A DNA stretch of 64,000 bases from an uncultured Spirochaetia bacterium (GCA_964398505.1 CAYNMZ010000001.1:394-64393); one strand, 5' to 3'; shown: positions 22,662 to 35,057, counted from the first letter of the stretch. Notes: generated from the letters alone by a model not told the origin. Translations and numbers: made by a program.

Positions 22662-25307
22662 TCAAATGTCAAGGTTTTTTACCTCCAGGGCATGAGTCTC
22701 TATAAACTCACGGCGCGGCGCAACTTCGTCACCCATTAGAACGCTGAAAACAGCGTCAGCCTCAACAGTATTTTCGTTGATTATCTGCAGCATTGAGCGT
22801 GTTTCCGGGTTCATTGTTGTTTCCCAAAGCTGCTCCGGGTTCATTTCACCGAGACCCTTGTACCGCTGTATTGATATACCCTGTTTTCCCCTTTTCCTAA
22901 TGTAATCAACAAGTTCCCTTACGGAAAAAATAAGCGTCTCGCCTTCCGGGCTTACTGCCTTAAACATTGGCGCCAAATTCTTTGTTTCCGTTTCCTTTTC
23001 AGAAGCGTTCAGAATCTCAAGTTCGTCCTCAAAAAGTTCATCAGCATCAAGCCCCTTTGTCTCAAGCCTCTGCATTATTTCTTCTGCCATCCTGAACTCG
23101 GCCATTTCCTGTAAATTCACAACTCTTATTTCTTTCTTCTGCTTTTCAATAGCGTCCATTACTTCCTCATACGTGCTTTTCTTTGTGATTTTTGCGAGCA
23201 CTTTTGAAGCAGAATCAGCAAGCTCTCTGTCGTTGAACGCGTATTCCGTCTTTCCCTTTATGGTCACTTCATAAGCAGGAAGCTTATCCCATCCGCTGCG
23301 CTCCTTAAGATAAGCTTCTATTGATACTCCAGCCTTGCGTATTTTCGGGATCAAATGCTCTATTTCCACTATATCGTTCAAAATTTCTTTTACCGTGGAT
23401 GACGGCATTTCCATTTTCTTGCTGTTGCGCTTGCTCATCTGTATAAGTTTTATGTCGGAAAGCCCCTCGTCTGTAAGGAACATATTCATTTCCCTGTCGT
23501 CCTTTATGTATCTTTCAGTCTTTCCCTTCTTTACCTTATAAAGCGGCGGCTGGGCTATGTAAACATAGCCTGCGTCTATAAGTGGTTTTGCCTGCCTGAA
23601 AAGAAAAGTAAGCAACAATGTTCTTATATGAGCCCCATCAACATCAGCGTCGGTCATCAAAATTATTTTTCTGTACCTTGCCTTTTCAATGTCAAAATTA
23701 TCAGCTCCCACCCCCGCTCCGATAGCGGTAATAAGTGTACGTATTTCCTCATTTGAAAGCACTTTATCAATCCTGGCCTTTTCAACGTTAAGTATTTTTC
23801 CCTTTAAAGGGAGTATGGCCTGATATCTCCTGTCCCTTGCCTGTTTTGCAGACCCTCCGGCCGAATCTCCCTCAACAAGGTACAGTTCGCACAACTCCGG
23901 GTCGCTTTCCGAGCAGTCGGCAAGCTTGCCCGGCAAGCCGCCGGTATCAAGCGCGTTCTTCCTCCTCGCAAGGTCCCTTGCTTTTCTCGCCGCTTCCCTT
24001 GCCTCAGCGGCGCCTATTGCCTTTGATATTATCCTCTTTGCTTCAGCAGGATATTCCTCAAAATACGCCGCAAGTTTCTCATAAACAAAGGAATTAACTA
24101 TTCCCTCTACTTCCGAATTTCCAAGCTTTGCCTTTGTCTGCCCCTCAAACTGGGGATCGGGCACTTTGACGCTAACAACCGCGTTTAAGCCTTCCCTTAC
24201 GTCATCTCCCTGAAGGGTGACATTTTCGTTCTTTATCAGGTTATTTTTCTTCGCGAAATATACGCAGGCCTTTGTAAGCGCTGTCTTAAAGCCGGAAAGA
24301 TGCGTCCCTCCTTCGGGTGTCCTTATATTGTTAACAAAAGACAACATATTATCCGAATAACCGTCATTGTATTGTATGGCCACTTCAACCTGTATCTTGT
24401 CCTTTTCACCGGAAATATATATCGGTTTTTTGTTTATTGGTTCCTTGTTCTTATTCATGCTTTTTACAAACTCTATTATTCCGCCCTCAAATTGAAAAGT
24501 TTCCTCTTTCTGCTCTTTACCCCGTTCGTCCTTTATTTTGATTCTTATTCCCTTGTTTAAAAAAGCCAACTCCTTCATCCTGGCGGCAAGAACATCATAA
24601 CTATATTCCAAAACCTCGAATATCTTACCGTCAGGCTTGAAAGTTACCTTTGTCCCTGTTTTCTTCGCTTCTCCTATGACCTTTACATCAGCCTTTGGAG
24701 TTCCTCTCTCGTATTTCTGGTAATAAATCTTTCCGTTACGCCTAACCTCAACTTCCAGCCATTCTGAAAGAGCGTTGACTACAGAAACGCCTACACCGTG
24801 CAGGCCGCCCGAAACCTTGTAGGCGTTGTGGTCAAATTTTCCTCCCGCGTGCAGTACAGTCATTACAACCTCAAGGGCAGACTTCTTTTTCTGCTTGTGT
24901 ATCTCAACAGGTATGCCACGGCCGTTATCCGTTACGGTCACGCTGTTGTCAATATGTATTACCACGGAAATGTCATTGCAGAAACCTGCCATGGCCTCGT
25001 CTATGGAATTGTCCACAACCTCGTATACAAGGTGATGCAGCCCTGCAGCCGATGTGCTTCCTATGTACATGGCCGGCCTTTTCCTTACAGCCTCAAGTCC
25101 TTCAAGGACTGTAATTTTGTCAGTTGTATACGAGGACTCTTCCTTTTGTTTGATCTTAGCCTCATCCTTTGAAGCAGCAGGCTTGGCCTCAACAGACGAT
25201 TCGTCAAAAAGCCCCGGCTCAGGTGATGCCGATGCTTTTATGCCTGTTTTTTTATCTTCTTTTGCGGATTTTCCCGCCTTTTTCGTATTAACCGGTTTTT
25301 TTAGCAT
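22662..25307 (-). CDS. gyrB: DNA gyrase subunit B, with a roughly 55-aa lysine-rich N-terminal extension
   Basis: [22 protein letters not shown] ATPase, Toprim, C-terminal tail; start set at ATG 25307 (MLKKPVN), 6 nt after AGGAGG, instead of track 25418. Confidence 0.93.
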
Positions 25308-25554
25308 GTATTTCCTCCTCATCTTTTTCCAGCCTTCGTATAAGCCCGCGCGCGGAAATGCGCGAAAAATAAACATACTCCTTTTCCTGTTTCCTGTAAA
25401 TAATAAATCCTGAAGCACCGGCCGAATTGTTCCTTGTCATAAATTTACTGCCGGCCATATCCAGAAACTCTTTGTTCCGTTCAATGCCGCTGAAAATACC
25501 TATTATACCTTTGCTGTCAAGTACAATATTGTCTCCTATATGAAGCGGCATCAT
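25288..25554 (-). CDS. DUF370-like small protein (YaaB/RemB-like, the gene preceding gyrB in Bacillus)
   Basis: 88 aa; [21 protein letters not shown]...[12 protein letters not shown] resembles the DUF370 pattern; overlaps gyrB start by about 20 nt as in Firmicutes. Confidence 0.5.
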
Positions 25555-25832
25555 TGTTTCAGCCTGAGCACTACATCACCTACGGCTTCCCTTCCCAGCA
25601 TCCTGTTTACCGAAATCTTTATCTGCTTTTTCCTGTAAGAAAGCTCGTTTAAAACAGCGCTGTTGTCGGCTTCTATAAAGAGCTTTTTTTTGTCCAGTTT
25701 AAATGGCACCGCACCTTTCGCGTAATCACCCGCAATTTCCGGCCATTTTTCAACAAGCGTTCCAAGCTCATGCCTTTGATTCAACCCTGACTTTTTTAAA
25801 AAAGCGCTTACATACTGACTGATATGCTTCAT
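25551..25832 (-). CDS. dciA: DUF721 / DciA-like protein (putative replicative helicase operator)
   Basis: 93 aa; WPEIAGDYAKGAVPFKLDKKKLFIEADNSAVLNELSY fits the DUF721 consensus; classical position upstream of gyrB. Confidence 0.55.
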   Translation of the reverse strand: MKHISQYVSAFLKKSGLNQRHELGTLVEKWPEIAGDYAKGAVPFKLDKKKLFIEADNSAVLNELSYRKKQIKISVNRMLGREAVGDVVLRLKQ

Positions 25833-33417: not shown

Positions 33418-33707
33418 AATGCCTCCTTTTTTAATGTGTTCTCCACATTATTTTATATACAATAAAAACAATTGATATATTAATATACATTGCTGCTGCT
33501 GTTCTTGTACTGTTAATAACCTTGATAATACATTTAACCCTTTTTAAATAAAGGGTTACTTATGATACTTAAATGTTAATATAAGCCGGAATCCGCGGTT
33601 CTTGTCAACATTTTAGCCGTCTTTTGCACAATTAAAGCTTAGAAACTGAATGCGCCTTGTTTTTCAACATATTGCGCACATGGTTGCCTACATGTTGCTG
33701 ACAATGC
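33418..33707. promoter_or_regulatory. dnaA-dnaN intergenic region: AT-rich candidate DNA-unwinding element with DnaA-box-like 9-mers (part of a bipartite oriC)
   Basis: Very AT-rich (ttttatatacaataaaaacaattgatatattaatatacat); TTGTCAACA at 33602-33610 and TTTTCAACA at 33661-33669. Confidence 0.4.
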
Positions 33708-35057
33708 CTATTTTTTTACCCTTGCAATGAGCTCATCCACGGTATTTTTGAACTTATCGTCGGATTTTATAAGTTTTTCTATTTTCTCATTGGCGTGCAT
33801 TACCGTGGTGTGGTCCTTGCCGCCAAAATACTGCCCGATCTGCACCAGGGAGTAATCCGTAAGCTGCCTTGTTATGTACATTGCTATCTGGCGCGCGGTA
33901 GCTATGTTCTCCGGGCGCTTTTTTGAGGAGAGGTCCTGTATTTTTATGTTGAAGTAATCAGCCACGATCTGCTGTATCAGGTCTATGCCGATCTTTTTTA
34001 CGGCCTCAAATGACGGGTTCGTGGTCTTGATAGCCTGCTTGGCAAGGTCCAGGGTTATTTCCCCGCTGTTCTGGGCGGCAATGGCCGTCAGGGTAAGCAG
34101 CGTGCTGCTTAAGTACCTGACATTGTTGTCCACATGCTCAGCTATGTAACCTATGACATTTTCGGGAACATGCTTGTTAAGCTCGGCCGCTTTCTGCTTT
34201 AATATCGCGACCCTAGTCTCAAAATTAGGCGGCTGTATGTCAACTATGATACCGGCTGATAGGCGGGATTTTATCCTGTCCTCTATGTTAAGCTCCTGCG
34301 GAGGTGAATCGGACGTGGCCACTATCTGCTTGTTGAGGTTGTAAAGGTCGTTGAAGGTGTGAAAAAACTCCTCCCTGGCCTGAACGCCTTTCTGCAGGTA
34401 CTCAATGTCGTCCACAAGCAGGAGGTCGACGCTCCGGTATTTTTCCTTGAACTCGTCAGTTTTGTTCTCGCGTATTTTCTGGACGAGCTCAAACAGGAAC
34501 TTTTCCGCTGTTGTGATAAGTATCCTGGAAGAAGGAGACCGCTCGTACAGGTAATTCCCTATCGCGTGCAGAAGATGCGTTTTGCCAAGGCCGACGCCCC
34601 CATAAATGAAGAGCGGGTTGTATGTCTGGCCCGGAGCCTCGGCAACAGCCCTGCAGGCAGCGTGCGCGAACCTGTTGGCATCCCCGACAATGAAGTTATC
34701 AAACTTGTACTTTGTATTAAGGTAGGGGATGGACTCGGCTTTGGAGTCAAGCGGCAGCTGTATCTGCTGTTCCTTTATTGTGATTTTCGGGGAGTAATCT
34801 TTTTTGGCCAGTTCCTTCTTAACTTCTATTGAAAGCGTCACGGCAGGGTCCAGGTATTTACGCAGAAAGACAAGAATGTCGTCAGTATACTTGGCTGTGA
34901 TTGTTTTTTTGTGAAGAGGGTCCGGAACTTCAAGAGTGAAGACTTTGTCATTCTCGCTGTAATTGGCTTCTGACTTGTCCAGCCAGAGCTGCAAGTTGTT
35001 GTTTTCAGTCTTTATTTTTTCAAGAATGCTGTTTATCCTGTCGTTTTCAGCTGACAT
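33708..35057 (-). CDS. dnaA: Chromosomal replication initiator DnaA
   Basis: 449 aa; Walker A GGVGLGKTHLL, C-terminal DNA-binding GGKDHTTVMHA; AGGAGGG RBS. Confidence 0.95.
   Translation of the reverse strand: MSAENDRINSILEKIKTENNNLQLWLDKSEANYSENDKVFTLEVPDPLHKKTITAKYTDDILVFLRKYLDPAVTLSIEVKKELAKKDYSPKITIKEQQIQLPLDSKAESIPYLNTKYKFDNFIVGDANRFAHAACRAVAEAPGQTYNPLFIYGGVGLGKTHLLHAIGNYLYERSPSSRILITTAEKFLFELVQKIRENKTDEFKEKYRSVDLLLVDDIEYLQKGVQAREEFFHTFNDLYNLNKQIVATSDSPPQELNIEDRIKSRLSAGIIVDIQPPNFETRVAILKQKAAELNKHVPENVIGYIAEHVDNNVRYLSSTLLTLTAIAAQNSGEITLDLAKQAIKTTNPSFEAVKKIGIDLIQQIVADYFNIKIQDLSSKKRPENIATARQIAMYITRQLTDYSLVQIGQYFGGKDHTTVMHANEKIEKLIKSDDKFKNTVDELIARVKK

Follow-up and report, generated by a model that had tools for sequence, protein, structure and literature searches.

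In the canonical gene cluster at the bacterial replication origin, exemplified by Bacillus subtilis and Mycobacterium tuberculosis, the genes are ordered dnaA-dnaN-recF-gyrB(-gyrA). The origin itself, oriC, is bipartite in B. subtilis and Helicobacter pylori, with its two halves flanking dnaA. The dciA gene lies between recF and gyrB, or adjoins one of the two, in 15 of 23 phyla (Brezellec et al. 2016, PMC5109545), and in B. subtilis the gene for RemB (YaaB, DUF370) separates recF from gyrB (Winkelman et al. 2009, as relayed in PMC8481266). Here, we describe the origin locus carried by a 64-kb stretch of DNA (GCA_964398505.1, CAYNMZ010000001.1:394-64393; hereafter the window), in which gyrA comes straight after dnaN, the dciA-gyrB side of the cluster is separated from gyrA by two envelope genes, and recF is found next to rsmG. 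Annotations on proteins identical or homologous to those of the window name Candidatus Goldiibacteriota, or Goldbacteria, a candidate phylum with zero cultured members in taxonomy. We place a probability of roughly 0.85 on this arrangement being an old, fixed lineage signature of the sampled Goldbacteria, and neither a recent insertion nor an assembly error.

Genes were called from a listing of open reading frames (ORFs) together with Pfam and NCBIfam scans of the window, and every gene named in an initial annotation of this DNA was recovered, at the same coordinates or within a few codons of them (Table 1). The minus-strand order is dnaA, dnaN, gyrA, a pseudo-histidine kinase gene (HK), a gene for a beta-helix/outer-membrane protein (OMP) fusion (BH), dciA, a weak RemB-like ORF, gyrB and crp. 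The canonical order is thereby broken, as the initial annotation had proposed: gyrA begins 80 nucleotides (nt) after dnaN, recF lies elsewhere and crp follows gyrB. The two gyrase genes, gyrA being upstream, are separated by 4.4 kb. An identity of the gyrA gene as a ParC paralogue was ruled out by the GyrA box. The start of gyrB was set by agreement with relatives; the listed ORF extends to 25418. The predicted helicase (DnaB) loader DciA is assigned by its family profile, matched at 54.0 bits (cut-off 24 bits) over profile positions 2–88 of 89, and its gene lies 244 nt upstream of the gyrB start, with the RemB-like ORF of 88 amino acids (aa) as the sole intervening gene. The rsmG-recF pair (53142–55111), likewise anticipated, sits away from dnaN on the opposite strand and replichore. 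There, recF starts 158 nt past rsmG, ~19 kb from dnaA and divergent from it, and the string on the rightward arm reads queA-PD40-PD40/OmpA-rsmG-recF.

This layout is shared by relatives. Six members of the pseudo-kinase family (L088–L093), chosen across the range of sequence identity and residing on contigs whose lengths range from 56 kb to 1.2 Mb, were compared with the window, and the order dnaA-dnaN-gyrA-HK-(BH)-dciA-(remB-like)-gyrB was found in all six. There are local departures: L092 encodes the N-terminal 490 aa of HK only and is missing the BH gene and crp (L092 10001–11473), while in L090 a DJ-1/PfpI gene separates dnaN from gyrA (L090 6904–9978). Conservation of the rsmG-recF adjacency was derived from RecF homologues and contig look-ups, and was seen in 4/4 relatives. 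In three of these, on long contigs, recF is preceded by rsmG and is divergent from dnaA at distances of 20.3, 7.6 and 20.2 kb; the fourth, with a RecF 44% identical to that of the window, also carries the queA-PD40-PD40/OmpA-rsmG-recF string. A metagenome scan with RecF added two distant loci at 30–31% identity, which were uninformative. As an observation apart, gyrA in L090 and HK in L093 (9184–11719) were each called as two ORFs, which may reflect frameshifts of long-read assemblies.

The initial annotation had raised a misjoining of unrelated contigs as a possible refutation, and the window is indeed of metagenome origin; moreover, L084, a JGI contig obtained independently from this species, breaks exactly within an ATTACC repeat array upstream of dnaA. 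Set against an artefact of assembly or binning are contigs of seven independent assemblies of the species, from different samples (JGI 3300010347 and 3300009704, both of the anaerobic-digester type; ENA ERZ795051, ERZ795052, ERZ27257464 and ERZ27257402; NCBI GCA_035449505.1), which encode proteins identical to those of the window across the same junctions. Jointly, they cover every junction from dnaA to crp, among them dnaN-gyrA, gyrA-HK, HK-BH, BH-dciA and remB-gyrB. The same order recurs in the six divergent genomes, contigs of 0.4–1.2 Mb among them (Ga0497321_000001, ERZ25039512 contig_8 and ERZ25039548 contig_12779). Misjoined contigs are thus excluded as a refutation, and we consider the chance that the window is an artefact to be negligible.

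Table 1 Coordinates of the features discussed, with the range of protein identity between the relatives (L088–L093) and the window
Feature	Position	Strand	Evidence and remarks	Identity in relatives
dnaA	33708-35057	-	Bac_DnaA E 1e-63, Bac_DnaA_C E 8e-31	60-86%
dnaN (beta clamp)	32311-33417	-	three of three beta-clamp domains	
gyrA	29753-32230	-	DNA_topoisoIV E 3e-166; six DNA_gyraseA_C repeats (C-terminal blades); GyrA box QKRGGRG, residue 533	74-84%
pseudo-histidine kinase (HK), membrane	27228-29723	-	HATPase_c 56.5 bits; HisKA below cut-off	43-65%
beta-helix/OMP gene (BH), secreted	25829-27211	-	Pfam NosD/Beta_helix; C-terminal OmpA/OmpX-type barrel from model	39-50%
dciA (DUF721)	25551-25832	-	PF05258, E 2e-14	31-43%
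88-aa RemB-like ORF	25288-25554	-	weak NCBIfam RemB similarity	
gyrB	22662-25307	-	Lys/Glu-rich N-terminal extension of ~60 aa	70-81%
GyrB extension, coding region	25120-25307	-		
crp-family cyclic nucleotide monophosphate-binding regulator	21976-22638	-	23 nt past gyrB; then HAD hydrolase, nucleotide cyclase and 3D-domain genes	
crp-HAD-nucleotide cyclase-3D	19531-22638			
rsmG (gidB)	53142-53858	+	GidB, E 1e-45; other replichore	
recF	54017-55111	+	TIGR00611, 310 bits vs 172-bit cut-off	
HD_5 protein and HAMP-cyclase	55263-58152			
dnaA upstream region	35058-35608	-	AT-rich, GC 0.33; DnaA boxes, promoter-like site, repeat array	
dnaA-dnaN spacer	33418-33707	-	GC 0.32; one DnaA box, one mismatch (33439)	
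promoter-like site inside BH	26040-26012		TTGACA-17-TACAAT, 11/12 matches	
ATTACC(C) array	35305-35355		six copies, period ~10 nt	
strong terminator	35555-35586		13 pairs, 9 G-C, long T run	
433-aa ORF	35609-36910	-	weak OMP_b-brl, E 0.006	
13 consecutive genes	35609-47798	-		
bacterial large SRP RNA	15877-16146	-	Rfam RF01854, 157 bits	

Several features of the surrounding genes accompany this layout. Beyond gyrB, crp is followed by genes for a HAD hydrolase, a nucleotide cyclase and a 3D-domain protein; crp-HAD-cyclase(-3D) continues the string in five of the six relatives, L090 being without the 3D gene there. Beyond recF lie genes for an HD_5 protein of the HD-GYP type and a HAMP-cyclase, an arrangement kept in L096 and L098, and cyclic-nucleotide signalling genes thus stand on both arms of the origin. 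The G+C content (GC) of rsmG (0.34) and recF (0.38) is below that of the surrounding genes (0.44–0.48), despite the conservation of the pair in relatives. The bacterial large signal recognition particle (SRP) RNA was the sole Rfam match in the window, with nothing inside the origin locus, and a scan of the window for tRNAs returned none.

Age and nature of the rearrangement

To place the locus among other lineages, we scanned a collection holding one genome per species with GyrA and used the matches as outgroups. The closest GyrA proteins, at 58% identity and mostly from Omnitrophota, are too distant for close synteny. Seven Omnitrophota loci (L001, L002, L004, L006, L008, L009 and L013) read dnaA-dnaN-[~100-aa DciA-like ORF]-gyrB-gyrA followed by unrelated genes, with recF outside the cluster, and the canonical dnaA-dnaN-recF-gyrB-gyrA order was seen in sampled loci of other phyla (L029, L043 and L074). 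Among the 71 outgroup gyrA loci with enough upstream sequence, dnaN-gyrA adjacency occurred in none, gyrB preceded gyrA in 16, and gyrA stood alone in 55. The position of dciA in the window is the expected one, because dciA is reported beside recF or gyrB in 15 of 23 phyla (PMC5109545).

The initial annotation had read the locus as an insertion of envelope and signalling genes into an ancestral recF-dciA-remB-gyrB block. One part of that proposal holds, in that dciA and the RemB-like ORF do lie directly upstream of gyrB; the block displaced, however, includes gyrA. Since the segment from dnaN to dciA opens with gyrA, more than an insertion of envelope genes is required, and either a block swap or a move of gyrA has to be invoked. 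Relative to the outgroup order, either the [dciA-(remB)-gyrB] and [gyrA-HK-BH] blocks would have exchanged places, or gyrA would have moved first and the envelope pair would have been gained afterwards. The present data are compatible with more than one number and direction of events. A placement of recF between dnaN and dciA at some time in this lineage would be drawn from other phyla, and the closest sampled outgroup is also without recF at that position.

That a horizontally acquired envelope/signalling cassette entered a once canonical recF-dciA-remB-gyrB block recently is very improbable in our judgment, and is contradicted already by the conservation data. Such an insertion would account for the presence of two genes functionally unrelated to their neighbours, and for the splitting of a cluster that is contiguous in many phyla (PMC5109545) and that retains gyrB-gyrA in the 16 outgroup loci. 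However, the order is kept in all sampled relatives, down to 43% identity of HK. The composition of HK and BH is native: their GC (0.444 and 0.463, respectively) does not depart from that of their neighbours, and their codon-usage distances to the window average (0.073 and 0.088) are among the lowest in the window. Family scans detected no integrase or transposase at the locus, and no flanking repeats were present there, short chance repeats aside; the hallmarks of a genomic island, namely mobility genes, repeats, deviant composition or patchy distribution (the order is present in 6/6 relatives), were all lacking. Further, gyrA belongs to the displaced block, and beyond the lineage neither the HK nor the BH family has close homologues from which the genes might have been donated.

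Spacing within the locus is compatible with a single transcription unit. From dnaN through crp, the spacers are 80, 29, 16, −4, −4, −20 and 23 nt, the start of dciA overlapping the BH stop by 4 nt, and they are similarly tight in relatives. A consensus scan found several weak terminator-like hairpins (5–10 pairs) on the minus strand within the dnaN-crp stretch, the density of such hairpins over the whole scanned region being above the shuffled background; nothing in the stretch was comparable in that scan to the strong terminator at 35555–35586, which ends the gene preceding the dnaA region. Because the spacers are tight and there is no convincing intrinsic terminator, the genes from dnaN to crp are suggested to form one long operon.

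Taken together, a model for the history of the locus emerges. Ancient block rearrangements, predating the divergence of the sampled Goldbacteria, would have produced the layout: gyrA may have moved ahead of dciA-gyrB together with the lineage-specific envelope pair, or the pair may have joined later, and recF would have moved beside rsmG. The layout would since have been kept through selection or inertia. On the leftward arm, dnaN-gyrA-pseudoHK-(beta-helix/OMP)-dciA-(remB-like)-gyrB-crp-HAD-cyclase-3D are probably co-transcribed.

Four observations weigh against this model or its parts: i) polarity was read from Omnitrophota (GyrA identity 58%), and the sister lineage may be a different one; ii) the relatives were found via pseudo-kinase and RecF homologues, so Goldbacteria that do not possess the pseudo-kinase would be missed; iii) L092 carries neither the kinase half nor the BH gene nor crp, and the envelope pair is therefore dispensable there; and iv) the BH gene contains, a short way upstream of dciA, a promoter-like element identified by consensus only, from which dciA-remB-gyrB may be started on their own.

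Position of the replication origin

A sliding-window GC skew showed a broad, flat minimum only, at 33–48 kb. The GC skew at third codon positions was informative. Computed per gene for the plus strand, and whichever strand the genes are coded on, negative values were obtained for 23 of the 24 genes lying left of 33.5 kb and positive values for 21 of the 25 lying to its right, among them dnaA (+0.09) and the ORF upstream of dnaA (+0.30). Pooled over minus-strand genes, the coding-strand skew is +0.17 at 19.5–35.1 kb vs −0.14 at 35.6–47.8 kb. The replication switch is at dnaN/dnaA, the sign changing in the spacer or within dnaA; the initial annotation had suggested GC skew as a means of confirming the oriC position.

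DnaA boxes with at most one mismatch flank dnaA on both sides in 7/7 Goldbacteria loci. In the window, three boxes lie upstream of dnaA (35105, 35205 and 35260) with one mismatch each, in company with a promoter-like TTGCAA-16-TATAAT site. In relatives, the dnaA-dnaN spacer contains 2–4 boxes that deviate at no more than one position, and in every relative one of these is perfect. Perfect TTATCCACA boxes recur at conserved offsets in the relatives, while the window species possesses one-mismatch boxes only. The sign change of the third-codon skew and the flanking DnaA boxes together place oriC at dnaA. The region upstream of dnaA is probably one half of a bipartite oriC, and the dnaA-dnaN spacer, which would also bear the dnaN promoter, is probably the second. 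With respect to this origin, the dnaN to gyrB string is co-directional with the leftward fork, and rsmG-recF are co-directional on the right arm.

Beside the origin, we noted the following. The ATTACC(C) array lies just upstream of the dnaA promoter-like site and was not found in the six relatives, making it species-specific. Immediately upstream of the dnaA region lies a minus-strand ORF of 433 aa that has no significant family match and is closed by the strongest intrinsic terminator found there; L089, L091 and L093 each have an ORF of comparable length at this position. This OMP-like ORF is one of 13 consecutive minus-strand genes, which include thiC/thiE/thiD2, accC/accB, efp, pepP, purC and others. 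These genes are head-on to the rightward fork, because the sign of their skew is reversed with respect to the minus-strand genes found left of dnaA.

The envelope pair and the region upstream of gyrB

The label of pseudo-histidine kinase given to HK by the initial annotation is borne out by its catalytic elements. HATPase_c is matched above its cut-off of 26.4 bits, while HisKA reaches 22.4 bits, under its 26.9-bit cut-off. The H-box reads MMN-T-ELKGVL, with Thr495, not histidine, at the phospho-acceptor position, which is occupied by Thr in 20 and by Asn in 4 of the 24 aligned family members. The N-box Asn is present in the window protein and is replaced by Thr in some family members, and the G1 (DFGMS) and G2 (NTGLRF) boxes are degenerate. 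The structural model of HK, with a predicted local distance difference test score (pLDDT) of 69 overall and ~90 in the sensor, comprises a transmembrane helix, a periplasmic Cache-like domain, a second transmembrane helix, a ~115-residue coiled coil and, C-terminal to it, the DHp hairpin, the CA domain and a disordered tail of ~120 residues that ends in the conserved ELPPLPDLEDDKG; residues 330–831 are assigned to the cytoplasm. Across 23 full-length members, the DHp hairpin (residues 483–552, ~70 residues) is almost invariant, the whole proteins being 43–68% identical. The family is sharply bounded: ~54 cluster representatives score from 1507 down to 366 bits, and the next matches are generic kinases at 106 bits or less.

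The BH family comprises 21 representatives of uniform length and architecture. In a structure predicted with AlphaFold from 20 homologues (pLDDT 84.9), a signal peptide is followed by a right-handed beta-helix (residues 22–250), a linker helix and eight long strands (288–450), which form an antiparallel barrel, in keeping with the fusion described in the initial annotation. Foldseek matched the barrel to OmpA, Ail, NspA and OmpX, with E-values of 2e-7 to 3e-5 and template modelling scores (target) of 0.60–0.74. Both termini of an OmpA/OmpX-type barrel are periplasmic, and the N-terminal beta-helix of BH should therefore be periplasmic too. If the topology of the barrel is the usual one, the beta-helix could meet the Cache domain of HK. 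HK would thus be an inner-membrane Cache-type sensor that does not autophosphorylate on histidine, and BH an outer-membrane-anchored beta-helix facing the periplasm; most likely, the two would constitute an envelope sensing or scaffolding pair that shares strong expression from an origin-proximal operon.

A more intimate relation to the neighbouring genes can be envisaged, in which HK and BH work together with the proteins of replication and DNA topology, a trans-envelope sensor reporting the state of the envelope to gyrase, DciA or DnaN. The DHp surface, or the acidic C-terminal motif, might dock on the Lys-rich extension of GyrB. The pair is confined to the lineage, as the drop from 366 to 106 bits illustrates for HK, it occupies the same locus in the 6/6 cases examined, the stop of BH overlaps the start of dciA, and GyrB bears a lineage-specific basic extension; the near-invariance of the DHp hairpin against a much lower whole-protein identity points the same way. 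If true, an envelope-to-chromosome checkpoint would explain the retention of the pair within the dnaN-gyrA...dciA-gyrB operon across the phylum, as well as the DHp surface and the basic GyrB tail. However, the proposed interaction is read from sequence features, operons close to oriC often hold unrelated, highly expressed genes, L092 keeps gyrA-dciA-remB-gyrB yet has lost the kinase half and BH, and inertia alone can conserve gene order at such distance. We therefore regard this partnership as unlikely, and prefer an envelope pair that shares the expression of the operon.

The identification of the 88-aa ORF as DUF370/RemB in the initial annotation stands with respect to its place upstream of gyrB and is weak with respect to family, the DUF370 link depending on weak profile matches. 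NCBIfam RemB (NF046065) is matched by the window protein with an E-value of 2e-5 and 24.6 bits, below the 40-bit cut-off, and by 4/4 Goldbacteria orthologues, the best at 6e-9. The window protein has no match to Pfam PF04025; this RemA-like family matches 5 of 18 family representatives, the best at an E-value of 0.002. The RemA structure in the PDB was not matched by the single sequence, nor by a 4-sequence or an 18-sequence profile. The ORF is present in four of seven Goldbacteria loci (the window, L089, L092 and L093) and absent from L088, L090 and L091.

In GyrB, the Lys/Glu-rich, low-complexity extension of ~60 aa precedes the canonical start and is found in 6/6 Goldbacteria relatives (L088–L093). 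Matches of tblastn to Omnitrophota GyrB span ~800–815 codons, vs 871–886 aa in Goldbacteria, which suggests that the extension is missing from Omnitrophota. A fusion of the RemB-like ORF to GyrB where the separate ORF is absent was considered and rejected, the extension being of Lys/Glu-rich low complexity and not RemB-like.

Significance and comparison with known systems

A full-text literature search for Goldbacteria returned 11 papers in which they are mentioned, and no title or abstract among these has the origin region of these bacteria as its subject. For a candidate phylum that has hardly been studied, the locus supplies a clean synteny signature, in which the dnaN-gyrA adjacency and the rsmG-recF pair should aid in recognising and binning Goldbacteria origin regions. 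Sequence alone suffices to place the origin precisely. It offers a natural case of gyrA and gyrB parted by 4.4 kb, envelope genes included, that still apparently form one transcription unit. It also flags a phylum-restricted pair of a pseudo-kinase and a beta-helix/OMP, and their conserved linkage to gyrase and DciA offers a lead that can be tested. General replication biology gains little, as origin clusters with scattered or reordered genes have already been amply documented.

Among pseudo-histidine kinases, Caulobacter DivL carries a tyrosine in place of the phospho-acceptor histidine. HK resembles it in combining a full sensor-kinase architecture with a substituted phospho-acceptor, and the strongly conserved DHp surface of HK suggests protein binding rather than phosphotransfer. 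HK differs in possessing Thr or Asn, not Tyr, along with degenerate G1 and G2 boxes and a Cache sensor, and the relation is limited to the generic histidine kinase fold. Similarly, the RemB-like ORF shares with B. subtilis RemB a length of ~85 aa, a position immediately upstream of gyrB, and a weak full-length match to NCBIfam RemB, which extends to 4/4 orthologues; it differs in its score below the cut-off, its lack of a Pfam match and its absence from 3/7 Goldbacteria loci.

The origin resembles the bipartite oriC of B. subtilis and H. pylori in the box clusters on both sides of dnaA, in 7/7 loci, and in the skew switch at dnaA/dnaN, the window species differing in that all its boxes carry one mismatch. 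Omnitrophota, which possess the closest GyrA in the collection of one genome per species (55–58% identity), share with Goldbacteria a recF outside the cluster and a DciA-like ORF of ~100 aa before gyrB. They differ in that gyrA follows gyrB, that the genes past gyrA are variable, and that the pseudo-kinase, beta-helix/OMP and RemB-like genes are absent. In common with the canonical cluster of B. subtilis and M. tuberculosis, the Goldbacteria locus has adjacent dnaA and dnaN, dciA on the side of gyrB, genes co-oriented with the fork, DnaA-box clusters beside dnaA and rsmG across the origin. It departs from that cluster in placing gyrA directly after dnaN and ahead of gyrB, in the two envelope genes between gyrA and dciA, and in a recF that stands outside the cluster, behind rsmG on the other replichore. 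The locus is a fixed, lineage-specific variant of a well-known cluster.

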